This document shows, piece after piece, positions 1-44,296 of a DNA stretch of 64,000 nt (the stretch's first letter is position 1; each line of letters opens with the position of its first letter). This stretch comes from a virus. Both the position numbers and the translations under genes were made by a program. The notes under the pieces are model-generated. The model was not told the DNA's origin. It did no database searches and was given only the letters and a program-made list of their open reading frames with translations. The DNA is taken from the IMG/VR virus record IMGVR_UViG_3300033150_001583, positions 8,849 to 72,848 of that record, one strand, 5' to 3'.

Positions 1-1
1 T

Positions 2-1252: not shown

Positions 1253-1314
1253 TTTAAAATTGGGCTTTGTTTGAATGATACTTGAAACTAATACATAAGG
1301 AGGTTAGAAAATAA

Positions 1315-1761: not shown

Positions 1762-1792
1762 TTTTTGAGACTAATAAAGGAGGTAAAGACAA

Positions 1793-2668: not shown

Positions 2669-2700
2669 TCAGATAACTAGAAAATAAAGGAGTGGTATAG

Positions 2701-3177: not shown

Positions 3178-3190
3178 AGAGTGATCTCTT

Positions 3191-3604: not shown

Positions 3605-3606
3605 TC

Positions 3607-4750: not shown

Positions 4751-5445
4751 TAGCTATGGAGCGGACTAGAAATGTAGAAAATTCTTTGTATTATGCTTTT
4801 TGTGAAAAATTTTCGCGGTTGAAAGAAAAAGATACATTACAAACTGATGATAATCAAGAATACAAATTTTCTTATTCTCCTCTGTCTCCCTTTCATGATG
4901 TAACCATCTACAAGAATGGAGTTTCCATTACTAGTGGATTTGTAATCAACTACAGAGATGGTATTTTAACTTTTGATTCTCCTAATTTACCCGAAGATGT
5001 TATTGAAGCTGATTATTATTATCAGTATGTTACTGTATTGTTATCTTTTCCAGATGATATAGAGAACAAATTGGTAGTTCCTTCTATTGTTATAGACAAT
5101 AATGAGAACACCAATAGACCTTTAGAACTTGGAACGAGAAAGCGTAGATATGAGAATTATGAATTCAATATCATTATATTTGGAAGGAGAGATGGTGAAA
5201 GAAAAGATCTTTGTGACATAGCAAAAGAAATTTTTCGCGGGGAAAAACCTCTCATTGATTTTAATCAAGCATTCCCTCTGAATCAAGATGGAACTTTAAA
5301 TACTGCTTTTAATAAAGAAGCACAGACTATTGGTTACTTGGATTTTGAAGACATTGTTGCTTATCCCGTTAGGACTGATGAACTTACTGATCCTAAACGT
5401 AAAGCCATAATGATTGAGGTAACTGTAGTTGATACAGTCCTCTAA
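4747..5445 (+). CDS. Tail terminator protein with an inserted small beta-sandwich domain
   Basis: Directly upstream of the major tail protein; insert 'VTIYKNG...GILTFDSP...VIEADY' resembles DUF2460-type domains. Confidence 0.55.
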   Translation: MIAMERTRNVENSLYYAFCEKFSRLKEKDTLQTDDNQEYKFSYSPLSPFHDVTIYKNGVSITSGFVINYRDGILTFDSPNLPEDVIEADYYYQYVTVLLSFPDDIENKLVVPSIVIDNNENTNRPLELGTRKRRYENYEFNIIIFGRRDGERKDLCDIAKEIFRGEKPLIDFNQAFPLNQDGTLNTAFNKEAQTIGYLDFEDIVAYPVRTDELTDPKRKAIMIEVTVVDTVL

Positions 5446-5472
5446 TCTTAGAAAAAAAGGAGGTTAGAATAG

Positions 5473-24225: not shown

Positions 24226-24237
24226 GAGGGTGACGCT

Positions 24238-27200: not shown

Positions 27201-28608
27201 ACTTGAGTTTTATAGAACTGGCCCTAGTACTGGAGTAGATACTTCCCAATATATTACCCTAAAAGATGTACGCTTGGTAAAATATCTTGACAATAGAATT
27301 ATTAAGCCAAGTTTATCAAAAAATGGCATTATGTATGGATTGGAATTTAATGAAGTAGGCCCAACAGATGGGCTTATGGGCTGGTGGAAGTTGGATGAGC
27401 CTATTAATCAACTAGACTACAGTGATTTTTCTTCTATTGGTGATTGGATTGATACGGGGAATAGCCGTGTTACACCTACAATTGTAGATAGTCCAGAAGC
27501 TACAAATGGTAAGGCCATGCAGTTTGCTGGTGGAGAAGGTTGGTATTATAAGAATGTATTAATACCTTATGATCCAAATAAACTGTACTGTGTATCTGGT
27601 AGGGTAAGGCAAGTAGTGGATGATGCTAGTAGCTACTGTTATATAGGAGTAGAAGGAGTAGCTTCAGATGGAACTACTATGATAAATATTAATGGGGCTA
27701 ATTCACACTCTAGTCAACACTATATAGCAGCTTCTCATCAACTTTTAACAGTGGCTAATGGTTGGGTTACATTTAGGGGTTATTTTACAGGTCATTCTAC
27801 ATCCGCTGGAGGGCAGCATAATGATCCTAATAGCCCTGCTGCTATGTATGATGGTGTGGCGTATATTAGGCCTCTCATTATACTTAACTATAATGATGGA
27901 GTAGGAACCGCCGAGGTTGATTATATAGAAGTTAGAGAAATAGCATATGCTAAAGATGTGTCAAGATACATTAATTATGGTATAGTAAATGGGTGCATTA
28001 CTACTACTGGTATAAATGGACTAACTTACAAGTTTAATGGCATGGATGATTATATTAGTATTCCAGATAACTCTATGTATGATTTTACAAATGCATTCAC
28101 AATGAGCCTTTGGATTAAAAGAGATGCATCGTTACCTAAAACTTATAATACTACTTGGAGGGGTGTAGTTACTAAAGGCCCTTTAGTTAGTCCTTATGGC
28201 ATTTATTGGGCATCAGGTGATGGTAGCTCATCTGTAAGTAGTCAATTCGTATTTGAAGTGTATGATGGAACAACTAGAGAACGTGTTTACTTCTCTTTAG
28301 ATACAGAATGGCATCATATCTTAGCGTTATTTAATGGGAGCGAACAATCGGTATACGTCGATGGTAGCTTAGTAGGCACTAACGCTGTTTCTGCGATTAT
28401 TACAGACAATGATCCTATATATATTGGATATGGTGGAAGTGACAGGTATTTCCCAGGTAAGATAGCGGATGTACGCCTATACAACCGTGCCCTATCCCCT
28501 GAAGAAGTTAGAATCCTCTATGAGCTAACTGGTGGTTCAAGTAATAAGATGAAGTTTACTGATAATGGAATAGTTTATGTTAAAGGCCAGTTTAAGGAGG
28601 TGGGTTAG
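24238..28608 (+). CDS. Multi-LamG/concanavalin-A domain receptor-binding protein
   Basis: Several 'W.HY..T', 'G.IDD.R.Y..ALS..E.' LamG signatures plus CBM-like segments. Confidence 0.85.
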   Translation: MGLVAWWKFENSLSSDEGNIASFSRASVAYKEDGTEVTTNIPRYEKGKIGYAVMVEEGTTNLHDDPLFTNVDANNVPTSWTKWIAYDNTVNPTVYEEGLKRFCRLEVNPDGTSLIQQNEVLTVGADYTVSYWARLNVADVSQISYLGFYYANNYYYPTGISFDADGSTTITITGGTLDYEKIKPSNQKYLYKLYDSANNFLGYVVDTDSVNGKVTLDRSVAAGSYTSVYFKHIDHRVYHVPTKDLISDNQWTYQKFTFSIPLHYNENGAYINTSICYRLHTNDGISGYLDIWQPQIEQKPYATSFTDGTRSPETLTIPTAGVIDRPEFTIGMWAKANVVKTDRWQGLFDGRWSPGMPVCLALQVNTNYLYFYYLDENGINTALNTGYVVSNRTAWHHYVITYAGGIIRIFVDGVEIKEATVSLQQNSGTQVFYIGRSKGSNEWWNGFIDDLRIYDYALSDKEIKELAKAKILHYKFDDFQEPTTNNIPSQDYFDVNGLKSAVYDPDTKEWTLVLAAGSSTNWRGILIKYSPDKVIEPAGAVITYSWEVYSEEEVPIVVDLNNYGMTTSTGSNDNRQWAEYHYGNTVPHQWVRMWATYQVNDDQDYYTRNNICFGNGFVPDHDVTIKVRNIQHELKDHPTSFVDGSREGIVHDCSGYEHHATLDADTPQWVEDSKLGGGCYYFNNKPLDGQHFQEIVAPNVYIPRQGTLSAWIKGTTDDQPLDNIYPFGWRNFCTLGPSGGTSDSRSGLIYYYNASSYTTRNWGGQGFYDGNWHLYTIAWDADNDILRLYKDGNKVGDDKSPGTMYHIETFRDFVVGSAWSSTYGGHGGYIDDVRVYATMLSDDDVKQLYQQRASLDDKGNLYTHEFKEPRSHLLIKEQTKNVFDNDWNSMGTWTIEDTDVSDFVESDRTLGNFYIEGWAYCSSADYTPRNMEYTKLNNDQGFRCFIENFLVWPDSWGQGWHYFQVPVTNGDNVTYYSVDQTPWHDMTRLEFYRTGPSTGVDTSQYITLKDVRLVKYLDNRIIKPSLSKNGIMYGLEFNEVGPTDGLMGWWKLDEPINQLDYSDFSSIGDWIDTGNSRVTPTIVDSPEATNGKAMQFAGGEGWYYKNVLIPYDPNKLYCVSGRVRQVVDDASSYCYIGVEGVASDGTTMININGANSHSSQHYIAASHQLLTVANGWVTFRGYFTGHSTSAGGQHNDPNSPAAMYDGVAYIRPLIILNYNDGVGTAEVDYIEVREIAYAKDVSRYINYGIVNGCITTTGINGLTYKFNGMDDYISIPDNSMYDFTNAFTMSLWIKRDASLPKTYNTTWRGVVTKGPLVSPYGIYWASGDGSSSVSSQFVFEVYDGTTRERVYFSLDTEWHHILALFNGSEQSVYVDGSLVGTNAVSAIITDNDPIYIGYGGSDRYFPGKIADVRLYNRALSPEEVRILYELTGGSSNKMKFTDNGIVYVKGQFKEVG

Positions 28609-29492: not shown

Positions 29493-30485
29493 TTGGTAGG
29501 TATTGGTAGAAGGATATACTATAGAAAAGATAATGGAGAGTTTCTTTTTGATACTGGAGAGAAAATAGGTAGACGTGTTAGAGATTCAACAGTAGAACAA
29601 GACTTGAGCATAATAAAGAGCTTACATCCAGATGTAGAATTGGATAATATAGATTTTATTCAGTTAGAATTTGGAGAGTATAGAGATGCAATATCGCTTA
29701 GTAGGTTTCTAACAGTAGATCCTAAAACAAAGAGGTTACAATTTCATGGAATAGTAGTTCTACATGCTTTTCCATATAACAGTGAAAAAGAAAGTTATAC
29801 TAAGACTGAGGTAGAGGAATTCTATAACAAGGACTATATACAATTCAATCTCAGACAATTACTCAAACAAGATTGGATACAATTCAGATGGATGGATATT
29901 GATGATCTGCATAATCGTCAGATTCATGATGCAGAATGGAAAGACTGTTTAGACGATCCTTATTTAGAGAAATATAGGACTGCTAAGATCGCATTAGCGA
30001 AGGACATTCTTGATAATGGAACATATTGGCCGTTTTCTATAGCCAAATTAGATGGAAAATATTACGTGTATGAGGGTAATCATAGAATAGATGCTATCAA
30101 AACCTATGATAAGTTTTGTGGATGGCCGAGAGATAGGAGATTGCTTTGTATTCTCTATCCTGATTTCTTTATAATATACAAAGACAAAAAAACCTACCAT
30201 AAAGTAATGGATTCTCCTGTAAAGCTCAGGATGCCCTATGTTGATAATCCCTCTAAACCATTCGTTGAACAGTTAATGAGAGTTGGTTTAGCTAAACTAG
30301 TAAGACCTAATGTTGTTGAAGTTACAGTCAATACTTACCATGATCTTTTTGACGTTTCGCAAGTTTATCCTCATTGGCTTAGAAATATTTTTTATGAGTT
30401 TGAACAAAAAGGAAGCAGGATTTTACCTAGTAAGATTATTAATTCAGAGATAGAATGGTCTCGTTTTGTTGAAGGGCGGGTGTGA
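29493..30485 (+). CDS. Fusion: fibre-assembly-like N-domain plus ParB/Srx-fold domain
   Basis: N-terminus 'IGRRIYY.K.NG..LFDTGE...IQLE.G.Y...VDP.T..L.F'; later 'WPFSIAKLDGKYYVYEGNHRIDAI' ParB-like motif. Confidence 0.65.
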   Translation: MVGIGRRIYYRKDNGEFLFDTGEKIGRRVRDSTVEQDLSIIKSLHPDVELDNIDFIQLEFGEYRDAISLSRFLTVDPKTKRLQFHGIVVLHAFPYNSEKESYTKTEVEEFYNKDYIQFNLRQLLKQDWIQFRWMDIDDLHNRQIHDAEWKDCLDDPYLEKYRTAKIALAKDILDNGTYWPFSIAKLDGKYYVYEGNHRIDAIKTYDKFCGWPRDRRLLCILYPDFFIIYKDKKTYHKVMDSPVKLRMPYVDNPSKPFVEQLMRVGLAKLVRPNVVEVTVNTYHDLFDVSQVYPHWLRNIFYEFEQKGSRILPSKIINSEIEWSRFVEGRV

Positions 30486-30488
30486 TGA

Positions 30489-31520
30489 ATGAATAAGATT
30501 GGTAGAAAAATATATTACTTAAAGAAGAATGGATTAGTCTTATTTGATACTGGAGAGAAAATAGGCACAAGTGTTAAACAGACCACCTATGAAGATGATA
30601 TTAAGGCTGCGGGTTTAGAGCGATTACATCAAGAAGGCAAAATAGATGTAATTGAGCTTGAATATGGGCAGTATAAGGAGGAGTTCGAACGGGCTTGTTA
30701 TATCAAAGTAAATCCTAAAACAAAGAAGTTAAAGTTTTATTTAGGGGATCGCGTTTATAAGATAGAATTTTATAACGGAGAAGAAAAATACACAAAAGAA
30801 GAAGTGGAGTATATCTATGATCAGTATGTTAATTTTAATCTGAGGAAGATATTAGAAGAAAATATTCCTAAAGTAAGTTTTAGATGGGTTTCTTTAGATG
30901 ATCTAGTAATTAGAGAGGATATACTTGTTAGGTCGTGGAAGAATTATTATAAAGATGGATATTTGGAAGATAGTTCGTTAGATAGAACTCTCCTTGCTAG
31001 GGATATACTTAAGCATGGTACATATTGGCCTATATTAATTGAGAATAATGGAAATGGATTGGTTGTGCATGAGGGCAATCATAGAGTTATATCTGCAAAA
31101 CTTTTTCAACTCGAAGGAGGTTGGCCTAAAAATAGAAGGTTTTTAGCAATAGAGGTTTTTGGTGATTATCCAAGACTTAAGAAAAGTAATCCGCAGGTAG
31201 TTTTACCTAAACCTGTTAGGCAAAGAATTCCCTTTGTTACTAAATTTCCAAGTGTGTCTAGGGATGACAAGGATACCTTAAAGTATATGGAGGAACAAGC
31301 GATAAACTTTGTAGATGATAAGGGGATAATGATTGAACTTTATGCTGATACTTATGAAGAATTTTTTATGTACAATCAAATGATTCCTCATTGGTTAAGA
31401 AATTTATTGTATGAATATAAAACCAAGAAAGGTATTATTATTAAACCTAGTAAAATCTTAAATGATGAAGAAGAATGGAATAAGTGGAGCAGAGGGGGTC
31501 GTCTATGTTCAGTAAGGTAA
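30489..31520 (+). CDS. Paralog of the upstream fusion protein (fibre-assembly-like plus ParB/Srx-fold)
   Basis: Same N-terminal motif; 'WPILIENNGNGLVVHEGNHRVISA'; shared C-terminal 'PHWLRN..YE' motif. Confidence 0.65.
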   Translation: MNKIGRKIYYLKKNGLVLFDTGEKIGTSVKQTTYEDDIKAAGLERLHQEGKIDVIELEYGQYKEEFERACYIKVNPKTKKLKFYLGDRVYKIEFYNGEEKYTKEEVEYIYDQYVNFNLRKILEENIPKVSFRWVSLDDLVIREDILVRSWKNYYKDGYLEDSSLDRTLLARDILKHGTYWPILIENNGNGLVVHEGNHRVISAKLFQLEGGWPKNRRFLAIEVFGDYPRLKKSNPQVVLPKPVRQRIPFVTKFPSVSRDDKDTLKYMEEQAINFVDDKGIMIELYADTYEEFFMYNQMIPHWLRNLLYEYKTKKGIIIKPSKILNDEEEWNKWSRGGRLCSVR

Positions 31521-32413
31521 AAAGAGTAGAAATTGAAATTCATAGTTATTGTAATCGCAAGTGTCCTTGGTGTCCTAATGGTTATGTAGATAGGAGCTTT
31601 TATAAGGAATTAGACGAGGAGGTTTATTTAGAAATTTTGAGGGACTTGAAAAGAAATAATTTTGATTATATGAGAGATAAGAATGATAAAAAACGTATTA
31701 CTATTCATAGGTTTTTTGAACCCTTGTCTAATGCAGAATTAGTTAAAAAGAGAGTTATACAGGGACATGAGATAATTCCTAAAGCGGAATTTAGTCTGAA
31801 TACAAATGGGGATTTTTTAAGTCCAGAGGTCTTGGATGGATTATATTTAGAAAGTTTATATATTATGGACTATGATTGTAAAGGAAGAGAATATTGGCTG
31901 GAGAAATTTAAGAAACTTAATGTACTTTTTATAAATGAAAGGGATAATTTGTTAATTGGTACTCATAAGAATATAAATAAGGTTGTGTGTTGTTTAGATT
32001 GGCCTAAACATGCTGAACTTGAAGATAGAGCGGGGTTTTTACCTGAAGAAGTTTATTATAACGGAGAAAAAATGTCTTGGAAAAATAATAGAGATGTTAG
32101 AAGAGAACCTTGCTTGGAGCCTACGTACTTTATATCAATTGACTATAATGGTAATGTTATGCCTTGTTGTCATATGAGAAGTGATATACCTAGATACTCT
32201 GAGTTTATATTAGGCAATGTGTATAAAAACAAACTCAGTGAGATATTTTCGTCTGAGAAAGCTGAATCACTAAGGAAACTCCTATATAGTTCGAATTATT
32301 CCCAATTTCCAAGTCATTGTCGTCATTGCCAAAAAACCCGTGATGAAAGATTTCTTAGAAGGTTTTTAGATAGAGAAGAAATAGAAAAAATAAGGAAAAT
32401 GAGGGAAAAGTAA
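31505..32413 (+). CDS. Radical SAM enzyme with Twitch/SPASM domain
   Basis: CNRKCPWC; 'TNGDFL'; C-terminal C.EP...G.V.PCC...LGN...C..C. Confidence 0.85.
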   Translation: MFSKVKRVEIEIHSYCNRKCPWCPNGYVDRSFYKELDEEVYLEILRDLKRNNFDYMRDKNDKKRITIHRFFEPLSNAELVKKRVIQGHEIIPKAEFSLNTNGDFLSPEVLDGLYLESLYIMDYDCKGREYWLEKFKKLNVLFINERDNLLIGTHKNINKVVCCLDWPKHAELEDRAGFLPEEVYYNGEKMSWKNNRDVRREPCLEPTYFISIDYNGNVMPCCHMRSDIPRYSEFILGNVYKNKLSEIFSSEKAESLRKLLYSSNYSQFPSHCRHCQKTRDERFLRRFLDREEIEKIRKMREK

Positions 32414-32415
32414 CG

Positions 32416-33252
32416 ATGTTATCTGAGGTGAGACTTGTTGAAATAGAAATTCATAGCAAATGTAATCGTAAGTGTTTATGGTGTCCAAATAGAGAGTTGG
32501 ACAGAACAAAGTTTATAGAGATGTCGTCAAGTATTTATAAAAAATTTTTATATGAATTGCGAGATGGTAACTTTAGTGGCACTATAACTTACTCAAGATA
32601 TAATGAGCCATTTTATGATATTAGCCTGTTCAAAAAAAGAGTGAAAGAGGCAAAATCAATTTTGCCAGATGTAAAACTTGTAACTAATACTAATGGGGAT
32701 TTTTTATCTCGCGAAAATTTAGATGGCCTTTTAATAGATGATTTAACTATCATGGATTATGACTGTATTGGTTTATATCAGTGTCAGCGGAGATTAATAG
32801 AGTTGGGTGTTAAGATAACTAAACTCGATTATCCATATATTTACGGAACACATAAAAATATTAGTAAGGTGTTGTATTTTGTTGATTGGCCTAGACATGC
32901 GCTTTTTGAAGATAGGGGTGGTTTTCTAAGAGATAAAAATTTGCGGTGGAAAAATAATCGAGAAAGAAGAAAGAGACCATGCTTAGAACCAAGGTATTTT
33001 ATTGCAGTTGATTATAATGGTAATGTTACTCCTTGTTGTCATATTCGTAGTGATATCAAAGAGCATAAGCCTTATATTTTGGGAAATTTATATCAACAAG
33101 ATATTGTGACTATTTTTTATAGCGATAAGGCTAGAAAATTTAGGGAGTTATTATCTAGTAATAAATATGATGAATATCCCTTCCCCTGTCAACATTGTCA
33201 AAAAGATGCGGGGAGATATACAAGAGATAATCCTAGCATTGATTTTGATTAA
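32416..33252 (+). CDS. Radical SAM enzyme with Twitch/SPASM domain (paralog)
   Basis: CNRKCLWC; same C-terminal Cys pattern; visibly similar to the upstream gene. Confidence 0.85.
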   Translation: MLSEVRLVEIEIHSKCNRKCLWCPNRELDRTKFIEMSSSIYKKFLYELRDGNFSGTITYSRYNEPFYDISLFKKRVKEAKSILPDVKLVTNTNGDFLSRENLDGLLIDDLTIMDYDCIGLYQCQRRLIELGVKITKLDYPYIYGTHKNISKVLYFVDWPRHALFEDRGGFLRDKNLRWKNNRERRKRPCLEPRYFIAVDYNGNVTPCCHIRSDIKEHKPYILGNLYQQDIVTIFYSDKARKFRELLSSNKYDEYPFPCQHCQKDAGRYTRDNPSIDFD

Positions 33253-33259
33253 AGGAGGG

Positions 33260-33916
33260 ATGGTTATTAAGTTAGGGGTTTTTATTCCAGGTAGACTTAA
33301 GAGTGAAAGGTTGCCGAATAAACTTATTCTTCCTATTGGAAAGTCGTGTTTGTGGGATATAGCATGTAGAAAATTAAATACACTCCCTGATAAGTATAAC
33401 AAGTATGCACTTGTCTGCGATAAAGAATTAATTGATATAGCTTCAAAATATCATAATATTAAAGTAATACATAGAGATAGAGAGACTGCCGAGGCTGAGG
33501 GGCCTTTGAAATTTATTTTTAAAGATTTGAAAGATGTAGAAGATACTCACTTAATGTTTCTTAATCCTTGTTTAAGTTTTTTGACCAAAGAAACTATTCA
33601 GAGATGCCTAGAAGAGTTCGAAGAACAGAAGTATGATTATGCGACAAGTGTTAAAAAGTTGCAGAATTGGATCTTTGATGAAAATGGTATTCCTTTAAAT
33701 TCTATTGATTATAAAAGACTTACTACAAAAGAAATCAAACCGATATACCAAGCTGCCCATTGTTTCCATATTTTTAATAAAGAAAAATTTTTTGAGGATG
33801 GAATGATGCTGAAACCTGGGCACGGGCTTATTGAAGTTCCTTACGAAGAAACTATTGATGTAGATACTTTAGAAGATTATCGGTATGTGAGGTATAGACA
33901 TGAGATATGTAGTTGA
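33260..33916 (+). CDS. Acylneuraminate cytidylyltransferase (NeuA/CMP-nonulosonate synthetase family)
   Basis: 'FIPGRLKSERLPNK' matches the IPAR.GSKR.P.K motif; C-terminal 'IDVDTLEDY'; ATG at 33260 behind AAGGAGG. Confidence 0.8.
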   Translation: MVIKLGVFIPGRLKSERLPNKLILPIGKSCLWDIACRKLNTLPDKYNKYALVCDKELIDIASKYHNIKVIHRDRETAEAEGPLKFIFKDLKDVEDTHLMFLNPCLSFLTKETIQRCLEEFEEQKYDYATSVKKLQNWIFDENGIPLNSIDYKRLTTKEIKPIYQAAHCFHIFNKEKFFEDGMMLKPGHGLIEVPYEETIDVDTLEDYRYVRYRHEICS

Positions 33917-34196
33917 TATAGACGGGACTATTTGCACTCAAAGAGAAAAAGGTGATTATGAAAATGCTGAACCCTTGCCAGAAAGGATAGAAAAGATAAA
34001 TAAATTATATGATGAAGGTCATACTATTTGGTTTTTTACAGCTAGGGGTTCTGAGACAGGAATAAATTGGCGGGAACTCACAGAAAAACAACTTAAAGAT
34101 TGGGGTGTTAAATATCACAGATTATTGTTTGGTAAACCTAGTGCTGATAGATATATAGACGACAAAGCTGTAAATGCTAACGAAAAGGAATGGTAG
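33900..34196 (+). CDS. Small capless HAD phosphatase (capsule-biosynthesis type)
   Basis: HAD motifs DIDGT, TAR, GKP, IDD. Confidence 0.8.
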   Translation: MRYVVDIDGTICTQREKGDYENAEPLPERIEKINKLYDEGHTIWFFTARGSETGINWRELTEKQLKDWGVKYHRLLFGKPSADRYIDDKAVNANEKEW

Positions 34197-34197
34197 T

Positions 34198-34518
34198 ATG
34201 GAGAATATAAGGGTGATAAATAAAAAATGGGGCAAAGAAAAGTGGATAAAAGTAACAGATAATTATGCTTTTAAGATATTGGAAATAAGCAGAGGTTGTT
34301 CTACTTCCCTGCACTATCATAAATACAAAGAAGAAACATGGTATGTTATTGAGGGTTTGGGGATTGCTCAAGTTAATAATAGGATAATACGTATAGAAGA
34401 AGGAGATTTTATTCACATTAAACCCAAGGTTTGTCATAGGTTAAGTGCTATTGAAAATTTGAAAATAGCCGAAGTTTCTACCTCTGAATTATGGGATGTG
34501 GTGAGGGTGATGAAGTAA
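34198..34518 (+). CDS. Cupin (mannose-6-phosphate isomerase type II-like)
   Basis: 'K.WG.E', 'SLHYH..KEETWYV..G.G', 'H.I..K..HRL' cupin motifs. Confidence 0.75.
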   Translation: MENIRVINKKWGKEKWIKVTDNYAFKILEISRGCSTSLHYHKYKEETWYVIEGLGIAQVNNRIIRIEEGDFIHIKPKVCHRLSAIENLKIAEVSTSELWDVVRVMK

Positions 34519-35351
34519 TGTTTATAGGTGAAATAGGTATTAATCATAATGGTAATATCGAATTAGCTAAGAAAATTATAGATATGGCAAAAAGAGCTGG
34601 GGTCGATGTTGTTAAGTTTCAAAAGAGGAATCCCGATTTATGTGTTCCCAAGGAACAGAAAAACAAAATTAAGGATACTCCTTGGGGTAGAATGACTTAT
34701 ATTGAATATAAGCATAAGATTGAATTTGGGAAGGACGAATATGATGAAATAGATAGGTATTGTAAGGATAATCAAATATTATGGACAGCAAGTGTTTGGG
34801 ATGTAGATAGTTTGGATTTTATTTTGCAGTATGATGTGCCTTTTATAAAAATTCCTAGTGCTTGTATTACTGATTTAGAATTACTTACAAGAGTTAAAGG
34901 TGCTAACAAACCAGTAATTATTTCTACAGGAATGAGTACAGAGCAAGAGATAGAAAAAGCAGTTAATATTTTAGATAATGTAGATCTTACAATAATGCAT
35001 TGTAATAGCAGTTATCCAGCTAATGATAACGAATTGGATTTACGGGTTATTTGTACTTTAAAGAAAAAATTTCTGTGGCACAAGATAGGATACAGTAGTC
35101 ATGACCTTGGAATAGGTGCTTGTATTGTAGCAAAAGTATTAGGGGCCGAGGTTATTGAAAAACACATTACTTTAGATAAAACTATGTGGGGTAGTGATCA
35201 AAAAATTAGCTTGGAATTTGATGAGTTAAGTGAATTAATACAGTATTTGAAAAGAATACCTGTTTGGCTAGGGGATAATGTAATAAAAGTTTATGATTCT
35301 GAAAAGAAAATTAGGAATAAATTAAGAAGGGTACGAAATGAGGTGAAATAA
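34518..35351 (+). CDS. neuB: NeuB-family nonulosonate synthase (short form, no C-terminal SAF domain)
   Basis: 'FIGEIGINHNG', 'VKFQKR', 'MHCNSSYP', 'GYSSH', 'IEKHITLD' signatures. Confidence 0.9.
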   Translation: MFIGEIGINHNGNIELAKKIIDMAKRAGVDVVKFQKRNPDLCVPKEQKNKIKDTPWGRMTYIEYKHKIEFGKDEYDEIDRYCKDNQILWTASVWDVDSLDFILQYDVPFIKIPSACITDLELLTRVKGANKPVIISTGMSTEQEIEKAVNILDNVDLTIMHCNSSYPANDNELDLRVICTLKKKFLWHKIGYSSHDLGIGACIVAKVLGAEVIEKHITLDKTMWGSDQKISLEFDELSELIQYLKRIPVWLGDNVIKVYDSEKKIRNKLRRVRNEVK

Positions 35352-37256
35352 ATGTCTTTAACTGAAATAGGTGGGTCACTAATTAGTCTTCCTGTAAATG
35401 ATAACTTTGATTATTTACATACCTTTTCAAAAGATATTATTAAAGAAAATATAGGATATGGTATAAGAAGTGGTTTAAATGTGCAAGCCCAAACTGTTCC
35501 AGATATGACAGTAAAGGTTACTAGTGGTGTTGCTTACTTACCTACTGGATTAAGAGTTCAATTGCCCGAAACTAATTTAAGTATATCTAACCCTAGTGTA
35601 GTCCAACATACAAATGAACCGCATGATACTGATGTAAATGGTATATTTACTACGGATTTAATGCCTATTGTTGATGTTAATGGTAGTTTCGCGGGAGTAA
35701 ATGATGTAACAGTAACAAAAGTTTCAGATGGTACTACAGTAACAGTTGACTCTATTGCTCCTGATATTGGTCAAATTGATACTGCTTTAACTGAGATAAC
35801 AAGTGTTGAGGTAGATTATTACCACGGTCAAGAAAGAATAGATATTATAGTTATAAATACAAGTGGGAATTTAGAGGTAATTGAGGGTACTCCCGCTAAT
35901 AGTAATCCCTCTCCCCCATCTACTCCTGTTGGTGCTTTAAAACTTGCAGAAATTTACGTAAAACCTAAGAGTGTGGTTTCTATAGAAAGTACTGATATAA
36001 CAAATACTAGTGTTATCAAGGGTATTCATTTAGATTCGAATTTTAATCTTGTTGTTGAACAGGACTTAATTGTAAAAGGTGCTCAATCAGTTGGTCAAGT
36101 TGTTAATGAAACTTTGGTTGTTCGTGATTATCTATATAATGACCAAACGGGTATGGCACTTAAGATTAATGATGATTTAAATGTAGTTGGAAATATAACA
36201 TTGGGTGGTACAGTGAATGGTCGAGATATAGCAAGTGATGGATTGACGTTGGATAATCATATAGCGAAGGAGGTGGATACTTCTTCAACAGATACTACCA
36301 AAGATAAACATGTCTCTAATGCACTTGCCAAGGGATGGGAAGACCACAAAAATTCGGTGGGAAATGTACATAATACCAGTCACAATCAATTAAATAATAT
36401 TGGTCAAGTTGATGTTACCTCTACTGATACTACTAAAGACAAACATGTTAGTAATGCTTTAGCTAAGGGCTGGGAAGATCATAAAAATTCTCCTCATTTA
36501 CAATTAGGAGAAACTTCTACTACTGCTTACCGTGGTGATAGAGGTAAAATAGCTTATGACCATGCTATTTCAACTGGCAATGCACATAATATGGATCATG
36601 CTGATTTGAATTTGATTTTGGGGGTAAATACAACTTCAACTAACACAACTAAGGATAAGCATGTTAGTGATGCTTTAGCTAAGGGTTGGGAAGATCATAA
36701 AAATGCTAGTGCTCCTCACCCTGGGCATGTTAAAAAGTCTGGTGATACAATAACAGGCACTATTACCTTGGGTAATGGTGCTTTACTTAGAAAGACAGAT
36801 AGTACAAATACGACGTATACCATAATAGATAATGATGCAAAAGTATGGCGAGCAGTTTATAACGACTTAGCAGAATGGTTTAAAAAAGCGGAGGATAATT
36901 TGGAACCTGGTGACTTACTTGCTATGTCGCCTAACGGTGTTGTTAAGACGCAAGGAATTCTAGATAGGAAAGTAGTTGGTGTATACTCAGATACGTTTGG
37001 CTTTTGTCTTGGTGGAGAAGCGTATGAAAATATGATGGATAATGAAAAAGACCATGCTCCAGTAGCTATTTCTGGCCGCGTTAAAGCAAAAGTTATAGGC
37101 AGAGCATCAATTGGAGATTTTGTAGTACCAAGCGATATTCCAGGAGTGGGTATGATATCCAAGGAACCTGTATTAGGATGTACAGTGGGTAAGGTTTTAG
37201 AAGAAAAAACATCTGTTAATATAAAGCGTATCTGGATATTAGTAATGAATAGTTAA
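35352..37256 (+). CDS. Tail fibre/spike with C-terminal intramolecular chaperone (peptidase G2-like) domain
   Basis: C-terminal 'NDLAEWF...EPGDL...VVGVYS...VAISGRV..KV.G....GDFVVPS.IPGVG' pattern; three internal KDKHVS.ALAKGWEDHKN repeats. Confidence 0.7.
   Translation: MSLTEIGGSLISLPVNDNFDYLHTFSKDIIKENIGYGIRSGLNVQAQTVPDMTVKVTSGVAYLPTGLRVQLPETNLSISNPSVVQHTNEPHDTDVNGIFTTDLMPIVDVNGSFAGVNDVTVTKVSDGTTVTVDSIAPDIGQIDTALTEITSVEVDYYHGQERIDIIVINTSGNLEVIEGTPANSNPSPPSTPVGALKLAEIYVKPKSVVSIESTDITNTSVIKGIHLDSNFNLVVEQDLIVKGAQSVGQVVNETLVVRDYLYNDQTGMALKINDDLNVVGNITLGGTVNGRDIASDGLTLDNHIAKEVDTSSTDTTKDKHVSNALAKGWEDHKNSVGNVHNTSHNQLNNIGQVDVTSTDTTKDKHVSNALAKGWEDHKNSPHLQLGETSTTAYRGDRGKIAYDHAISTGNAHNMDHADLNLILGVNTTSTNTTKDKHVSDALAKGWEDHKNASAPHPGHVKKSGDTITGTITLGNGALLRKTDSTNTTYTIIDNDAKVWRAVYNDLAEWFKKAEDNLEPGDLLAMSPNGVVKTQGILDRKVVGVYSDTFGFCLGGEAYENMMDNEKDHAPVAISGRVKAKVIGRASIGDFVVPSDIPGVGMISKEPVLGCTVGKVLEEKTSVNIKRIWILVMNS
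36275..36705 (+). repeat. Three copies of an about 80-nt coding repeat (D/N-T-S/T-ST.TTKDKHVS.ALAKGWEDHKN)
   Basis: Copies near 36275, 36410 and 36628. Confidence 0.85.
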
Positions 37257-37269
37257 AGGTGGTGAAATT

Positions 37270-37632
37270 ATGGGTGAAGCTCCAAGTGTAAATTATGTTG
37301 ACCCTGGGGAGCAAACTAATAAATCTAAGTTGGATGCTTTAAAAGCTGATGTAGACAATGCGCTAACAACTACTGGTGCTTCTTTTACATGGACGGAGTG
37401 GCCGATAAGTGTTGGAGAAGCAATAAACGATGCAGATATTCTTGAGTTAAGAAGTGCCCTTGATGTTGCTTATGATAATCTTGATATAGGATGTTCAACT
37501 TATCACTCAACTGTTTATAGTGCTACATATAGTGACTATGGGGATGATTCTGAGGATTCTCATGATTCTTCAGATGATAGTAATAATAGTGTTAGATCAT
37601 TTAACTCTGGGGATTTTAATCTTTATGATTAG
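37270..37632 (+). CDS. Small protein with D/S/N/Y-rich C-terminal core; putative radical-SAM substrate
   Basis: Leader-like N-terminus; core CSTYHSTVYSATYSDYGDDSEDSHDSSDDSNNSVRS; directly upstream of rSAM genes. Confidence 0.6.
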   Translation: MGEAPSVNYVDPGEQTNKSKLDALKADVDNALTTTGASFTWTEWPISVGEAINDADILELRSALDVAYDNLDIGCSTYHSTVYSATYSDYGDDSEDSHDSSDDSNNSVRSFNSGDFNLYD

Positions 37633-37644
37633 GAGGCGATTAAT

Positions 37645-37875
37645 TTGCCTTATGCATGGGTACAGAGTATTCCTGGAGATGGTGTGCTTGATGAACAAAT
37701 TGATGAAATTAAAAGTGTAGCTGATTATATAAATTCTAGTCATTGTCCTGGTTACTATGGTTCTGTTAAATCTGCTAATCATATTACTCACTATGGTGAT
37801 TATGGTGATGATAGTGATGATAGTGTCAATACTAATAATTCTGATAGAAGTGATAATAGCGTAAATTTAGCCTGA
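37645..37875 (+). CDS. Paralogous small D/S/N-rich protein; putative radical-SAM substrate
   Basis: AGGAGG RBS, TTG start; shares C-x-x-Y-x3-V-x-SA...DYGDDS(E/D)DS...NNS-x-RS with the upstream gene. Confidence 0.6.
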   Translation: MPYAWVQSIPGDGVLDEQIDEIKSVADYINSSHCPGYYGSVKSANHITHYGDYGDDSDDSVNTNNSDRSDNSVNLA

Positions 37876-37890
37876 TTAAGGGGTGTTTAT

Positions 37891-39270
37891 ATGATTACAA
37901 TTAAAAAAGCTGGTGGTCGTGTTAAAGATATTAATATTTTCTTCTCCGCGAAGTGTAATATGAACTGTGCATATTGTTATATACCTAAAACAAAATATTT
38001 GAATAAAGTTAATGAGAAAGTCAGAGAATCTTTAATAAATGGATCTATAGTAAAAAATATTAAGTCGTTTGTTGATCCAGAAGACATGAGTACTGTATCA
38101 TTGTGGGGGGCAGAGCCTACTCTCAACTCTGACTGTGCTGAAAAATTTTTTAGTGATCTTTTCAAAGAATTTCCTATGATAGATACTGTTGAATTTTCTA
38201 CCAATACACTTTTAGGTTGTGAGTATATATTAGAAATAGTTGATGCTGTTGATAAATGTTCATATAAGTTAAAGAATCCTGAAAATATTGGAGTAGATAT
38301 TCAAATATCTTTAGATGGCCCAGCGTGGATAACAGATGCTAATAGACATCCCAATGCAACAGCAAAGATTATAAAAGTTTATAAGTCTTTAGTAGATGAA
38401 TTCTCCGTTAGAAAATATGGAAATTTAAAGAAAGTTAATATTCATTTTAAGCCGACTCTTACTTGTGAGAATATGAGAGAAATGAATAATGACTTGAATA
38501 AGTTAGTAGGTTGGTATAAGTTTTTTGAAGAACTAGTGGATTATAGGCGAAAATGTAAAAAAAAGCATGGTGTTCTTGGTTATATTCCAGCACCTTTACC
38601 AACAATAGTAACTCCTGGGAAACATACATCAGAAGATGGTAAACAGCTTGCTCAGTGGATACGTAATACTAAGGGAGTAGATACTTCACAGTTTAAATAT
38701 TATAAACAGCCTTTATTTACTCAACCTCTTACAAAAGTAAAACACTTTATAGAAATTAATCAAGAAGTAGCAGGAAGATTTCATGAATTAACTTGTGGTG
38801 GAGCAGATGCTTCTTTTGCGCTGGGTGTTCAGAATGACATTCACCCGTGTCATAGAAATTTTATATGTAATTCTTATTTGGAATATCCTTCAGCTAAAGA
38901 GAGGTTGGCTAGTAGAAATTTGGTTGTAGAGGTTGGGGATGATACTAACTTACTTCGGTTACTTTATATAACTAGGGGGTATCATGACTTCTTTTCTGCA
39001 CGGGCGGCCTTTATAACTGCTGCGGTGAAACGTTTAGCTATGTGTGGTCAGGCTGATGAGATTTATCTATATAATGATGATCTTTGTATGTTGCTTGGAG
39101 TAGCTTTATCAGGTATTACATGTTATATAGGTTCTGTAGTAGAATCTACAAGTGTTCATCTTCCAATGTTGTCGTTAATTAGATTGCTTGCAAATGGTGC
39201 ATTTCAGGAGCTTTTAGAAATGTTATTAGAAAGGTGGGGTAATGGGCATGGATTATCACTTGGAAAATAA
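37891..39270 (+). CDS. Radical SAM peptide-maturase-like enzyme with degenerate SPASM
   Basis: CNMNCAYC; 'LWGAEPTL'; 'CGG...IHPCHR' but lacks the distal SPASM Cys cluster. Confidence 0.8.
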   Translation: MITIKKAGGRVKDINIFFSAKCNMNCAYCYIPKTKYLNKVNEKVRESLINGSIVKNIKSFVDPEDMSTVSLWGAEPTLNSDCAEKFFSDLFKEFPMIDTVEFSTNTLLGCEYILEIVDAVDKCSYKLKNPENIGVDIQISLDGPAWITDANRHPNATAKIIKVYKSLVDEFSVRKYGNLKKVNIHFKPTLTCENMREMNNDLNKLVGWYKFFEELVDYRRKCKKKHGVLGYIPAPLPTIVTPGKHTSEDGKQLAQWIRNTKGVDTSQFKYYKQPLFTQPLTKVKHFIEINQEVAGRFHELTCGGADASFALGVQNDIHPCHRNFICNSYLEYPSAKERLASRNLVVEVGDDTNLLRLLYITRGYHDFFSARAAFITAAVKRLAMCGQADEIYLYNDDLCMLLGVALSGITCYIGSVVESTSVHLPMLSLIRLLANGAFQELLEMLLERWGNGHGLSLGK

Positions 39271-40591
39271 TGTTGTAGTTAATCATATTCTTGAAGAAAT
39301 GTATTTTAAAAATTGGCATCCAGAAGGACATCGTAATATGAGAGGATTAGAATTAATTATAAGTCCTCGTTGTAATTTAAAGTGTAAATATTGCTATATT
39401 AATAATTTTGGTCACCGTTTATATCCTAGTAAGATATATAATGAAGCTAAGATAATTGAAAATACAGATATTATTATTGACTGGTTAATAAGTAATAAAT
39501 ATAGGCCAAGATTAGACTTATTTAGTGGTGAAATATTTGCTCAAGATTTAGGACATAAAGTTATTGAATTGATTTATGAAAAATATAAAAGAGTACAAGA
39601 AGATGCTAAGATTTCCTATATTTGTGTTCCAACTAATTTTACCTTTATACAGGATAAAGAATTAACAGATAGAGTCCAAAGCTATATTGATAAATTTAGG
39701 GAAATTGGAATCATATTTCATCTGAGTGCTAGTTTTGATGGTAAGTATATGGAGCAGAATAGACCTTATAAAGCTAATATAGATTATGATTTAAATAAAC
39801 CCAGAGATGATGAATACTATGAAAAAGTGTTTGAATTTGTAAAGAAGAATGATTGTGGTCTTCATCCCATGGTATATTCAGAAGGAATTGAATTGTGGAA
39901 AAAGAATTTTTTGTGGTTTCAAGGAATGATGAGTAAGCATGGTATTGATTGGAGAAAAATTTATCTTTTACAAGTTCGTAATGCTGAATGGACTAGAAAG
40001 CAATGTAAAGGCTTATATGATTTTGTGGTATGGTTAACGAAGTGGGCGTTTAATAAGGTAGGGAGAAACAAAGAAAAATACATTGATTTTTTAAAATGTC
40101 ATCCTTACGGTTTCAATATTCTTAAGACTACTTTGGGAGATAATGGTAGAGGACTTGCTTGTTCTATTCAATCAAGCCTAGCAGTTAGATTGGGGGACTT
40201 GGCTCTAGTGCCCTGTCATAGACTTATGTATGAAACTCAAGAATATGGACGTTTTATAGTGGAGAATGGGAGAATAACTGGGATTGAGGCTATTAATCCT
40301 GAATTGCTTATTGGAGTTGTAAGCCATGATTTTAGATCAACTGCTTATTGTATAACTTGTTCAATTAGGGATTTGTGTAGTGGAGGATGTCTTGGTAGCC
40401 AGTATGAAATTACTGGAGACCCTTTCACTCCTATACCGACAATGTGTGCTATGCAACATGCATTAGCTGTGGGGATAATTAAAGGTATGTTAGATATTGG
40501 AGTTTATTCTTATGCTGTTGAACTTATGACAGAACCACAAATTTATCAGCATGAATTAATTAGAAAGGAGTTAGATAAGTATGGGTTTTAA
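39242..40591 (+). CDS. Radical SAM/SPASM peptide-maturase-like enzyme
   Basis: CNLKCKYC; 'FSGE'; full SPASM 'CS...PCHR...CITC...CSGGC.G...C'. Confidence 0.85.
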   Translation: MGMDYHLENNVVVNHILEEMYFKNWHPEGHRNMRGLELIISPRCNLKCKYCYINNFGHRLYPSKIYNEAKIIENTDIIIDWLISNKYRPRLDLFSGEIFAQDLGHKVIELIYEKYKRVQEDAKISYICVPTNFTFIQDKELTDRVQSYIDKFREIGIIFHLSASFDGKYMEQNRPYKANIDYDLNKPRDDEYYEKVFEFVKKNDCGLHPMVYSEGIELWKKNFLWFQGMMSKHGIDWRKIYLLQVRNAEWTRKQCKGLYDFVVWLTKWAFNKVGRNKEKYIDFLKCHPYGFNILKTTLGDNGRGLACSIQSSLAVRLGDLALVPCHRLMYETQEYGRFIVENGRITGIEAINPELLIGVVSHDFRSTAYCITCSIRDLCSGGCLGSQYEITGDPFTPIPTMCAMQHALAVGIIKGMLDIGVYSYAVELMTEPQIYQHELIRKELDKYGF

Positions 40592-41096
40592 AGAACATAA
40601 AGATAAGTTAATATTCTTACTAAGTGAAGATGTTAATGTAAGTATATTTTTAGGAAGCAGGGTACGTCATGTTCGTGAGGTAGTTAAAGAAGTGATAGAA
40701 GATTTAGAAAAACGTATGTCTAACAATGTTAATGAAGTTCCTGAATCACTAAAAGTTAAGGTTGAAAGATTAAATAAAGATTTGATAGTACTTACTGTTG
40801 TTAATATAGTAGAAGATTCTACGCGAGAGTTTCTAGATTCTTACTCTTTACTTACTTATAATTGGGGTAGCGCAATAAAAGACGAAGAAATTAAAAGAAC
40901 TTCTAGGGGAATTAAGACAATGTTGGATTTTCATAAATCTACTGTTGGGTTAATTTCAGCGGCTCGGACATTTGTTAGATATGCGAAGCAATTTGAATCA
41001 TTTAGCCCCAGTGCCTTTAATATTAGCAAAGCATATCTGGAACAGCTTTACGATGATTTAAAAAAAGGAAAGAATATAAACAATAGAAATAAGTAA
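40581..41096 (+). CDS. Hypothetical helical protein coupled to the rSAM genes
   Basis: Overlaps the rSAM stop codon; no recognisable motif. Confidence 0.5.
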   Translation: MGFKEHKDKLIFLLSEDVNVSIFLGSRVRHVREVVKEVIEDLEKRMSNNVNEVPESLKVKVERLNKDLIVLTVVNIVEDSTREFLDSYSLLTYNWGSAIKDEEIKRTSRGIKTMLDFHKSTVGLISAARTFVRYAKQFESFSPSAFNISKAYLEQLYDDLKKGKNINNRNK

Positions 41097-41868: not shown

Positions 41869-42885
41869 TTGAAAAGAGCCTTGGATTATATTAAATATAA
41901 ACCATATTGGGGTACTGGAGAAGGAGTAAAAATAGCAATAATGGATCAGCCTACAGAAATAAAATTATTCCCTGATCTTAATGTAACTCCAGTTAATTAT
42001 AACGGAAGTAGTTATAATTTTCCTCATGGTACAATGGTTTTAGATGTTTGTTCTGAAATAGCAAGTGAAGCTGAGTATTATACGTACCCTACCTTGGTTT
42101 ATAACATAGAAACACAATATATAAAAGATTTGGAAGATTGTATTAAACGTGGTGTTGATGTAGTTAATATGTCTTTTTCTATTCCTCCCCAAGAAGTTAC
42201 GGAAGATATGATTGAAATAACGAGAGAAGCTTATAAAGCAGGAATTAAGATTGTAACTTCTTCTGGGAATACAGGAGACCGTAATGTAAGATTTCCTGGA
42301 GATATGGACGAAGAAGTTATAGCGGTTGGGGCTATTTCTATGGATACAGGTGAAATAGCTAGTTATACAACTAGAGGAGAATACTTAGAGATTTTAGCTC
42401 CATCAGGAGTTTGGGTTAGAGACAATACAGGAGAAATGACATATTTTAGAGGAACCTCTACTTCCTCCCCTATTGTGGCTAGTTCAATTGCTGTTTTTAT
42501 CGAGACATATAGAAAGTTACACGGAGAAGATCCAAATATTGAGCAATGTAGACACTTTCTTTTATTTGACCATAAAATGATTAACGGTTATCCCCTATTT
42601 GAGTATCCAGATTATCAAAAATTCTGGGGGGTTGAAAAACCATTTGTAGGTAGAAAAGCAGTGTTTCAAATCGGCAATAAACATCTCTATATTTATGATT
42701 GCTCTGCTAGCGAAGAAAAATTAATTAAAGAAATTGTAATGGATATTGCTCCAACTCTGATGCAGTCGGATAAGAAAGGATATGCAAGAACCATGATTCC
42801 ATTAAGGTTCGCATTTGAAGCCTTTGGATTAAATGTTGAATGGGTTCCTGAAGGAAAGAAAATTATTGTTAGAAAAAATGTGTAA
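41869..42885 (+). CDS. Subtilisin-like serine protease (S8) with C-terminal copper-amine-oxidase N-domain
   Basis: Catalytic motifs GVKIAIMD, HGT.V, SSGN.G, GTS.SSP; C-terminal 'RTMIPLRFAFEAFGLNVEW'. Confidence 0.85.
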   Translation: MKRALDYIKYKPYWGTGEGVKIAIMDQPTEIKLFPDLNVTPVNYNGSSYNFPHGTMVLDVCSEIASEAEYYTYPTLVYNIETQYIKDLEDCIKRGVDVVNMSFSIPPQEVTEDMIEITREAYKAGIKIVTSSGNTGDRNVRFPGDMDEEVIAVGAISMDTGEIASYTTRGEYLEILAPSGVWVRDNTGEMTYFRGTSTSSPIVASSIAVFIETYRKLHGEDPNIEQCRHFLLFDHKMINGYPLFEYPDYQKFWGVEKPFVGRKAVFQIGNKHLYIYDCSASEEKLIKEIVMDIAPTLMQSDKKGYARTMIPLRFAFEAFGLNVEWVPEGKKIIVRKNV

Positions 42886-43554: not shown

Positions 43555-44256
43555 GTGAAGTTGATTACTAAAGATTTTTTAACAATAAATAAATATTCGC
43601 GTCCAGGTATAAAACTTAAAGGTATTAAAGGAGTTGTAGTACATTGGACGGCTAATCCTAAAACTACTGCAAAAAATAATAGAGATTATTTTGAGAGTCT
43701 AAAAGATAGAAAAAATACATATTGTTCTGCTCACTACATTATTGGACTTAAAGGAGAAATTGTTCAGTGTATCCCCGATGATGAAATGGCGTATCATGTG
43801 GGAAGTAAAACATATACTCAGGAAGCTCTTAAAAGACTTTCGATATATCCTAATAATTGTACAATAGGAATTGAATGTTGTATTTTAGATTGGGAGGGGC
43901 GTATGACAAATGATACGTACTCCTCCCTACTTTATCTTTGCAAAGAACTTTTAAAAAGACATAATTTAACTGCTGATGATTTGTGGCTTCATAAGGAAGT
44001 AGTGGGTTGGAAGGATTGTCATCGTTGGTTTGTTAATCATCCTGATGAGTGGCAAAAATTTAAGGAAGAAGTGAGAAAGAGTATGTCTGAAAAGGATGAT
44101 TGGCGAGTCAAGCTGGGTCAAGAAGCTGTAAAATTTTTGGCGGAAGAAAAAATTATAAATAATCCAGATGTTTGGAAGGACAAAATGAGAGAACCTGTTG
44201 AAAATTGGCTGTTTTTTGAGTTGATAAAAAGAACCATAAAAAAACTAAATAAATGA
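43555..44256 (+). CDS. Endolysin, N-acetylmuramoyl-L-alanine amidase (Amidase_2)
   Basis: 'GVVVHWTAN', 'SAHYII', 'AYHVG', 'N..TIGIE.C', 'LHKEV.G.KDC' motifs. Confidence 0.9.
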   Translation: MKLITKDFLTINKYSRPGIKLKGIKGVVVHWTANPKTTAKNNRDYFESLKDRKNTYCSAHYIIGLKGEIVQCIPDDEMAYHVGSKTYTQEALKRLSIYPNNCTIGIECCILDWEGRMTNDTYSSLLYLCKELLKRHNLTADDLWLHKEVVGWKDCHRWFVNHPDEWQKFKEEVRKSMSEKDDWRVKLGQEAVKFLAEEKIINNPDVWKDKMREPVENWLFFELIKRTIKKLNK

Positions 44257-44268
44257 GTTAAATTACAC

Positions 44269-44296
44269 TTGACAATGGATATTCAAATGCTATAAT
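44269..44296 (+). promoter_or_regulatory. sigmaA promoter
   Basis: TTGACA (44269)-16 nt-TATAAT (44291) with extended -10 TG. Confidence 0.8.

Follow-up and report, generated by a model that had tools for sequence, protein, structure and literature searches.

What would two radical S-adenosylmethionine (SAM) enzymes be doing among the tail genes of a phage? The question is raised by five genes at positions 37270–41096 of a 64,000-nucleotide (nt) stretch of viral DNA (the window; positions 8,849 to 72,848 of IMG/VR record IMGVR_UViG_3300033150_001583, a complete genome of 139.6 kb with terminal repeats), in which two small proteins, here called pepA and pepB, are followed by two radical SAM enzymes (rSAM1 and rSAM2) and an all-helical protein of 171 amino acids (p171). 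The analysis is computational throughout, the cassette being known from sequences and predicted models. On balance, we consider it probable that these genes form a conserved maturation cassette, in which the radical SAM pair modifies the tails of pepA and pepB to give a fibre-associated product and not a secreted peptide that is made on the ribosome and modified after translation (RiPP).

Conservation of the cassette

The five open reading frames (ORFs) of the original prediction are all present on the plus strand and tightly packed: pepA (37270..37632; 120 residues), pepB (37645..37875; 76 residues), rSAM1 (37891..39270; 459 residues), rSAM2 (39242..40591; 449 residues) and p171 (40581..41096). 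From the preceding 634-residue tail-fibre gene (35352..37256, plus strand), which lies outside the conserved core, to p171, genes are either separated by gaps of 12–15 nt or overlap. The overlap between rSAM1 and rSAM2 is 29 nt, and that between rSAM2 and p171, noted earlier as coupled, is 11 nt.

Single-sequence searches for related loci in viral and genome collections returned nothing, searches of 50,697 GenBank phage records by blastn and tblastn, with the cassette and with rSAM2, gave no match, and a search for sequencing runs containing the cassette listed none. Related loci were found by alignment-based scans. The set analysed comprises 36 loci (27 IMG/VR contigs, contigs of metagenome-assembled genomes (MAGs) labelled Colwellbacteria, Paceibacterota, Saccharibacteria, Clostridia and Peptococcaceae, and three contigs identified by exact-protein look-ups); loci L084 and L085 were looked at in addition, outside this set. 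rSAM1 directly adjoins rSAM2 in all but two loci (34/36), both of which are cut by a contig end, and a p171 homologue directly follows rSAM2 in 26. Of the 36, 33 have an ORF that bears a leader or is strongly D/N/S/T/Y/H/G-rich; the three without one are L068 (cut by a contig end), L026 (where a Cys/Phe/Ser-rich ORF takes its place) and L072 (none). The locus had originally been read as a RiPP-like combination of substrates and maturases, to which homologous enzymes occurring without the peptides would be a counterexample. Since repeat proteins adjoin the enzymes in 33/36 loci, such enzymes almost never stand without them, and the reading is supported.

An ordered pair of substrates, in which type A, whose leader has two units, precedes type B, whose leader has one, occurs in 19 of the 36 loci and in L084 and L085, in a range from phage to a DPANN archaeon, and is located either before rSAM1 or after p171. 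One rearranged locus (L017, 4562–8835) has two p171 paralogues, in the order rSAM1–p171–pepA–pepB–rSAM2–p171. Loci L030, L032, L034, L070 and L026 form a divergent clade (rSAM2 28–38% identical) without detectable p171 and leader, in which one long substrate-like ORF (182–474 residues) lies upstream of rSAM1; that of L026 (5063–5611) is Cys/Phe/Ser-rich, not Tyr/Asp/Ser-rich.

In cells, the cassette is a sporadic and probably horizontally moved accessory system: the enzyme was found in 1 of 401 genomes sampled from the phylum of the Saccharibacteria genome, namely the centre genome only. The same count weakens the idea of a lineage-wide attachment device of the candidate phyla radiation (CPR) and DPANN. 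A role in defence or counter-defence was dropped, as PADLOC returned no defence family other than one weak, generic match of the radical SAM core to pVip. In six viral loci, the radical SAM genes are interrupted by one kind of stop codon only, with 2–8 TAG (L010, L024, L027, L029 and L031) or 4–6 TGA (L028) per gene; these phages therefore appear to reassign that codon in late genes.

Folded leaders and repetitive tails

In pepA, a degenerate first repeat unit (helix 18–35) and a second unit (W41...E59-L-R61...D65; helix 54–70) are followed by a junction cysteine, Cys75, and a 45-residue core rich in Asp, Ser and Tyr. pepB has a single repeat unit (M-P-Y-A-W...D-E-I-K), then Cys34 and a 42-residue core; its TTG start, with AGGAGG 8 nt upstream, gives the M-x-[F/Y]-x-W N terminus seen family-wide. 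By BLASTP, similarity between the two proteins is not significant (E = 3.5). A leader hidden Markov model (HMM) built from other loci only, and searched against the 377 ORFs of the window, singled out exactly these two (pepB residues 1–41, E = 4e-10; pepA residues 38–81, E = 1.4e-8), the next match having E = 1.4. Judged by this profile, pepA and pepB are true paralogues, as had been suspected from a shared leader-like segment and from the core strings C-x-x-Y-x3-V-x-S-A, DYGDDS[E/D]DS and NNS-x-RS, the latter being present in both translations. The DYGDD strings might also be given an X-Y-G ‘splicease’ reading, which was considered and set aside because it is not general to the family. In the AlphaFold2 (AF2) model of pepA, residues ~10–72, with both helices, have a predicted local distance difference test score (pLDDT) of 80–90 and the core one of 39–51; the model has no match among viral structures at E ≤ 0.001.

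A search of 1.84 billion proteins with a type-A leader profile (cluster representatives at 50% identity, E ≤ 0.001) yielded 2,550 cluster representatives, tandem-repeat proteins without a tail included. Architectures were sorted for the best 150 of these: 114 begin with the leader at the N terminus and continue in a D/N/S/T/Y/H/G-rich tail (median 76 residues, range 21–221, median one Cys), 24 have two or three tandem units at the C terminus and no tail, nine have the repeat internally or a tail that is not D/N/S/T/Y/H/G-rich, and three have a leader away from the N terminus and then a tail (P0180, P0177 and P0192, the last starting at residue 20). Carriers of Laminin_G_3, fn3, beta-propeller and hexosaminidase-type domains are among the tail-less proteins. 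The ‘leader’ is thus a predicted folded copy of a widespread, helix-containing repeat of ~33 residues (S-W-T...G..I.A.H-I-x-E-L-R), which no Pfam model covers. Two or three tandem copies of it (S-W-T..P...G..I.A.H-I-x-E-L-R-x-A-V) occur in, for example, P0144, P0189, P0222, P0250, P0135 and ~30 more of these best 150 proteins, often at the extreme C terminus of secreted multidomain proteins (Laminin_G_3, fn3, beta-propeller, RHS).

The leader domain is closed by the junction Cys in 111 of 113 independent proteins, mostly as N-x-C-x-x-[H/E/D]. The tail that follows is built from a tetrad, [Y/V/H]-[D/N]-[S/T/G/A]-[T/G/S/A], in which two larger residues precede two small ones: position 1 is Y in 21%, V in 18% and H in 12%, position 2 is D in 25% and N in 23%, position 3 is S/T/G/A (Gly 20%) and position 4 is T/G/S/A. 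Tetrads number 1,122, as against 492 ± 17 in shuffled tails, and consecutive in-register pairs 521 as against 26 ± 5; the autocorrelation of Ser/Thr rises from 0.06 at lag 2 to 1.9 at lag 4, and Cys makes up 1.4% of tail residues. The 3/6-residue periodicity originally assigned to the cores is not upheld, the family-wide period being four residues with a super-period of eight, and the cores of the window's own pepA and pepB being short, Asp-rich and weakly periodic. The tails are hypervariable, and cores evolve much faster than leaders, enzymes and p171: between L012 and L018, identity is 93%/80% for the leaders, 87% for rSAM2, 79% for rSAM1 and 69% for p171, but 40%/30% for the cores (in this comparison, the L016/L019 pepA leader row, a splitting artefact, was ignored).

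Two radical SAM enzymes and a putative helical helper

Both enzymes belong to the radical SAM superfamily and resemble peptide maturases, in agreement with the original prediction. rSAM1 matches PF04055 (35 bits; cutoff 29.5) and Fer4_12, and its cluster-binding CX3CX2C motif (C22/C26/C29) is invariant in 24/24 homologues. It misses the seven-Cys SPASM pattern, having C302 (23/24 homologues), C320 (24/24) and C411 (24/24) only. With the third of these, C411, rSAM1 is not the degenerate enzyme of the earlier description, which would keep only the proximal Cys pair; the pattern fits a three-Cys, twitch-like auxiliary site with one predicted cluster, and not a decayed SPASM domain. In rSAM2, CX3CX2C (C44/C48/C51) is invariant in 28/28 homologues, PF04055 scores 28 bits, just below the cutoff, and the SPASM domain model scores 24.4 bits against 27. 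The seven-Cys pattern of TIGR04085/PF13186 is nevertheless present, Cys 307, 325, 370, 373, 379, 383 and 402 being invariant in all 28, which confirms the full SPASM set ascribed to this enzyme.

The NCBIfam matches are led by PapB for both enzymes (53.8 bits for rSAM1 and 61.3 bits for rSAM2; cutoff 340), with QhpD second for rSAM2 (49 bits; cutoff 453), and all lie far under family cutoffs of 340–855 bits. More than 434 relatives of rSAM2 are 41–66% identical to it and none is specifically named. At E ≤ 0.01, rSAM1 has no match among Protein Data Bank (PDB) sequences; the rSAM2 profile has three, CteB (5wgg), 8vpo and ChlB (9gm3), so that the nearest solved relatives are the peptide cross-linking maturases CteB and ChlB, which, with the invariant CX3CX2C of both enzymes, favours a maturation cassette. 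Constant pairing and overlapping genes make a heteromeric rSAM1–rSAM2 maturase plausible.

Conservation of the clusters bears on whether the tails work as such, as Ca/Fe-binding or adhesive acidic stretches, with the enzymes as inactive relics or chaperones. The tails are indeed rich in the metal-ligating residues Asp, His, Tyr and Ser, and the core has no predicted fold. Retention of the cluster-binding Cys across 24 (rSAM1) and 28 (rSAM2) diverged homologues is, however, not expected of relics, and we give this explanation very little credence.

The N-terminal peptide-recognition domain of ~70–100 residues found in typical RiPP maturases is absent, CX3CX2C beginning at residue 22 in rSAM1 and residue 44 in rSAM2. 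Because neither enzyme has a leader-recognition domain of its own, a role for p171 as scaffold or substrate adaptor is reasonable. Its AF2 model (pLDDT 89.8; predicted template-modelling score (pTM) 0.73) is a six-helix bundle with a flexible linker at residues 140–149, and its C-terminal helix is conserved (F-x-P-P-x-F-x-[LIV]-S-[KR]-x-Y-L). No match to p171 was found in Pfam, NCBIfam, PHROGs or PADLOC; the best Foldseek match in the PDB has E = 0.15, and VIA-align wide gave Z ≤ 8.9, within helical-bundle noise. Two uncharacterised proteins of the AlphaFold Database were matched and are probably family members; an automatic ‘globin-sensor’ label on one of them was not adopted.

Relation to known maturation systems

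Judged by family scores, the cassette follows a logic like that of several characterised systems, yet is a member of none. In the CXXX-repeat system (TIGR04115 maturase, TIGR04114-type targets), a radical SAM/SPASM maturase likewise stands beside a low-complexity target with a four-residue period. However, rSAM2 scores 20.2 bits against the TIGR04115 cutoff of 350, the periodic residue is Cys there and Tyr/Val/His here (tails with a median of one Cys), and the leader domain and p171 belong to different families. The His-Xaa-Ser set consists of HxsB (TIGR03978), the paired radical SAM enzyme HxsC, the His/Ser-rich HxsA and the small HxsD (TIGRFAMs description). HxsABCD thus shares with our cassette two different radical SAM enzymes found together, a polar/aromatic repeat substrate of short period and a small extra protein. 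The HxsB model, by contrast, gives 22.8 and 15 bits (cutoff 370), the period is three there (H-x-S) and four here, and p171 has no NCBIfam match; we know of no phage or fibre context for the Hxs system.

The triceptide synthases (XyeB, GrrM/OscB, YhhB, AmcB, HaaB/HtkB and ChlB) are radical SAM/SPASM enzymes that target aromatic-X-X motifs repeatedly, those with Tyr and His among them, and can form links from His C2 to C-beta (PMC11499958). One of the three PDB sequences matched by the rSAM2 profile is ChlB, and [Y/H]-[D/N]-[S/T] fits aromatic-X-X. Family scores of 15–29 bits against cutoffs of 310–450 nevertheless place the cassette outside these families, and the present system has two enzymes plus a helper and a leader that is a folded domain. 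Moreover, Val at position 1 (18%) and Gly at position 3 (20%) cannot form a cyclophane link, and tetrads containing them are therefore unlike the triceptide motif.

QhpC is a small protein without regular secondary structure that is cross-linked by the radical SAM/SPASM enzyme QhpD, has its leader removed by the subtilisin-like QhpE and stays in a larger assembly as a structural subunit. The likeness extends to QhpD as the second-best NCBIfam match of rSAM2 and to a nearby S8 protease that is weakly QhpE-like. Scores again fall short of the cutoffs (49 against 453 bits for QhpD and 29.7 against 165 for QhpE), there are no dehydrogenase subunits here, and several Cys-to-Asp/Glu thioethers in QhpC contrast with about one Cys per tail. 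Maturases of ranthipeptides and sactipeptides of the PapB type (NF047865, TIGR03974) differ similarly: the PapB scores given above stand against 340 bits and that of the SCIFF maturase is 30.1 against 425, and their substrates are Cys-rich with multiple thioethers, unlike tails with a median of one Cys.

A probable association with tail fibres

Classical RiPP pathways are set apart from this cassette by its folded leader domain and by the conserved gene set, which across the 36 loci includes neither a dedicated protease nor a transporter. This bears on a rival explanation, in which the cassette is cargo (a ‘moron’): the leader would be cut off, for example by a nearby S8 protease or one of the host, and lysis would set free the modified cores, to serve the phage or lysogen as bacteriocin-like, signalling or metal-binding peptides. 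The leader-plus-core layout and the peptide-maturase-type enzymes suit such cargo, as do the adjoining lysis genes and the occurrence of the cassette in cellular genomes without fibre genes. A protease is also at hand: three genes downstream lies a subtilisin-like S8 protease (41869..42885, plus strand; PF00082, 63.9 bits) with a C-terminal, cell-wall-type Cu_amine_oxidN1 domain and the weak QhpE-like match (29.7 bits; cutoff 165), and three S8 genes surround the cassette of L072 (Peptococcaceae; 1–6913), the only other locus with any. The enzyme may be a processing protease or be unrelated, and is a candidate for a non-conserved accessory.

S8 genes, however, are seen in 2/36 loci, and the conserved set has no immunity gene either. 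Its leader is predicted with confidence to be a folded domain and shares homology with a structural repeat that occurs in large surface proteins, whereas typical leaders are disordered; the junction has no cleavage motif, and tails reach 221 residues. The module also forms the C terminus of P0180, a 960-residue protein with DUF5000/F5_F8-type-C (lectin-type) domains, where a type-A leader leads into C-S-T-H and a core; in L084, P0180 is followed by pepB, rSAM1, rSAM2 and p171, with a collagen-like tail fibre on either side of the whole. In P0177, a beta-rich domain is fused to a leader and a core of the window's pepA subtype. Products associated with the fibre and not secreted, as originally suggested, gain support from these fusions and from the missing protease and transporter, and we consider release as cargo unlikely, if still worth serious attention. 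Association with the virion is suggested mainly by the two clear fusions, together with synteny.

The fibre gene directly upstream of pepA is less informative. Besides a DUF4815 match (residues 145–219), its product has a C-terminal region of ~200 residues (~416–634) that is the only part common to the fibres upstream in L002, L008, L013 and L006. This region has no Pfam match at E ≤ 0.01. It resembles PF11962 (Peptidase_G2) clusters (atlas feature score 0.96, 218/256 shared; TM 0.69) and gives weak PDB sequence matches to the phi29 pre-neck appendage (6qz9, E = 0.069; 3gqh, E = 0.82), and in these comparisons looks like the Peptidase_G2 intramolecular-chaperone domain of phi29 gp12-like fibres. 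Such a generic module marks the ‘last fibre gene’ and not a partner of the cassette. Docking of pepA on it was accordingly dropped as a candidate, the domain being normally cleaved off.

Several points weigh against a fibre-associated maturation product. The modification, its chemistry and incorporation into the virion are all things that we infer. The pepA and pepB cores of the window are short, with weak tetrad periodicity, and in about ten loci, all divergent, p171 or the leader is not detectable. What is conserved in the upstream fibre is the generic, normally cleaved chaperone domain just described, which offers no specific partner, and the slot between tail-fibre and lysis genes is a classic position for cargo. 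Complete pepA–pepB–rSAM1–rSAM2–p171 sets also occur in cellular settings without a fibre gene: one lies beside rpS7/rpS12/L7Ae on a Nanohaloarchaeota MAG contig (L085), and a 238-kb Parcubacteria contig (L004) has one that is bordered by TatAC and by the genes for pyruvate:ferredoxin oxidoreductase. Finally, a complex prediction of p171 with pepA(1–85) and pepB(1–50) gave a median of 0.47 for pepB as partner and 0.34 for the best control, which provides no answer on binding and no evidence either way.

Genomic context

Downstream of p171 lie two small ORFs, the S8 protease, holin-like ORFs and an endolysin (43555–44256). A Shine-Dalgarno sequence precedes every gene of this stretch, which contains neither a terminator nor a surplus of promoter-like sites; the first perfect sigma-70-type promoter (TTGACA, 16 nt, TG-TATAAT) is at 44269–44296, directly past the endolysin stop, and is the predicted start of the next transcription unit. 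The cassette is thus part of a late transcription unit running from tail to lysis genes. All relatives of the endolysin are from Bacillota phages or human-faecal phage contigs, and an anaerobic Bacillota host (a gut Firmicute) is therefore likely.

Upstream of the cassette, the tail module contains an enzyme island (29493–35351) of two paralogous proteins of 330 and 343 residues with an N-terminal rhodanese-like part (phrog_3321), two further small radical SAM/SPASM proteins (31484–32413 and 32416–33252; top NCBIfam match a tungsten-cofactor radical SAM maturase, 36–46 bits against a cutoff of 380), a PseF-like cytidylyltransferase, a capsule-type HAD phosphatase, a cupin and NeuB. By its gene content, the island resembles a nonulosonic-acid pathway and possibly glycosylates a virion protein. 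Ahead of it (20542–28608) are two giant fibre-like proteins, one of 1,227 residues with fn3, and one of 1,456 residues with three Laminin_G_3 domains and matches to sialidase-like N-terminal domains.

The presence of the island allows a further explanation, in which pepA and pepB are unmodified fibre-assembly or adaptor proteins, chaperone-like small ORFs being common after fibre genes, and the radical SAM enzymes act on the fibre or on the island's nonulosonic-acid sugar. The island is, however, not part of the conserved cassette and is missing from most related loci (for example, L002, L004 and L085), whereas repeat proteins are present in 33/36; the nearest relatives of rSAM1 and rSAM2 modify peptides, and the near-invariant junction Cys and the tetrad pattern point to a constraint imposed by an enzyme on an otherwise hypervariable tail. 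We regard unmodified adaptors as improbable.

Proposed mechanism and implications

Radical SAM/SPASM enzymes cleave SAM reductively, abstract a hydrogen atom from the substrate and form a bond oxidatively, with auxiliary clusters as electron sinks; in CteB (PDB 5WGG), a substrate Cys ligates the open iron of an auxiliary cluster. For a maturation cassette, we envisage a corresponding sequence of steps. The putative substrates pepA and pepB would each present a folded N-terminal domain (of two and one ~33-residue units, respectively), the junction Cys and an unstructured tetrad tail. rSAM1, with one twitch-like auxiliary cluster, and rSAM2, with a full SPASM domain, would be produced by translational coupling and act together on the tail, p171 serving as a dedicated helical scaffold or adaptor. 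SAM-derived 5'-deoxyadenosyl radicals would take hydrogen atoms along the tail, and the auxiliary clusters would accept the electron, so that covalent modifications would recur along the tail, in the likeliest case as an intramolecular cross-link in each tetrad. The junction Cys could plausibly anchor the substrate at an open auxiliary-cluster iron or make a single thioether. Among candidate chemistries, we would prefer ring-to-C-beta or ether cross-links within tetrads, then a junction-Cys thioether and then epimerisation. The N-terminal domain would probably be retained, and the product would be a rigid, protease-resistant appendage on the tail-fibre apparatus, at the surface that contacts the host.

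In its most specific form, which we offer tentatively, the proposal is that in phages, and sporadically in CPR bacteria and DPANN archaea, the radical SAM pair stitches a disordered Tyr/His–Asp/Asn–Ser/Thr tail into a covalent rod or knot at the host-contact end of the fibre, which would make it the first enzymatically cross-linked receptor-binding element of a virion, formed by a Cys-independent and possibly new chemistry. To our knowledge, a Cys-poor tetrad of Tyr/His/Asp/Asn/Ser/Thr is the target of no characterised radical SAM family, and new chemistry is therefore likely.

Established roles of radical SAM/SPASM enzymes lie in the synthesis of antibiotic-like peptides and in the maturation of a few enzymes; the literature searched contains no description of this cassette, or of a radical SAM/SPASM enzyme maturing a phage structural protein. 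The ~33-residue ‘x-E-L-R’ repeat of the leader, widespread and itself missing from Pfam, adds to what the cassette brings to light. Should the mechanism hold, hundreds of natural substrate variants would be available for a single enzyme pair, which would be useful in enzymology and for constrained peptides. If the tails are cross-linked fibre parts, the host-recognition organs of phages would include enzyme-made covalent architecture that is invisible to structure prediction, and neither the engineering of host range nor virion proteomics could leave it aside.

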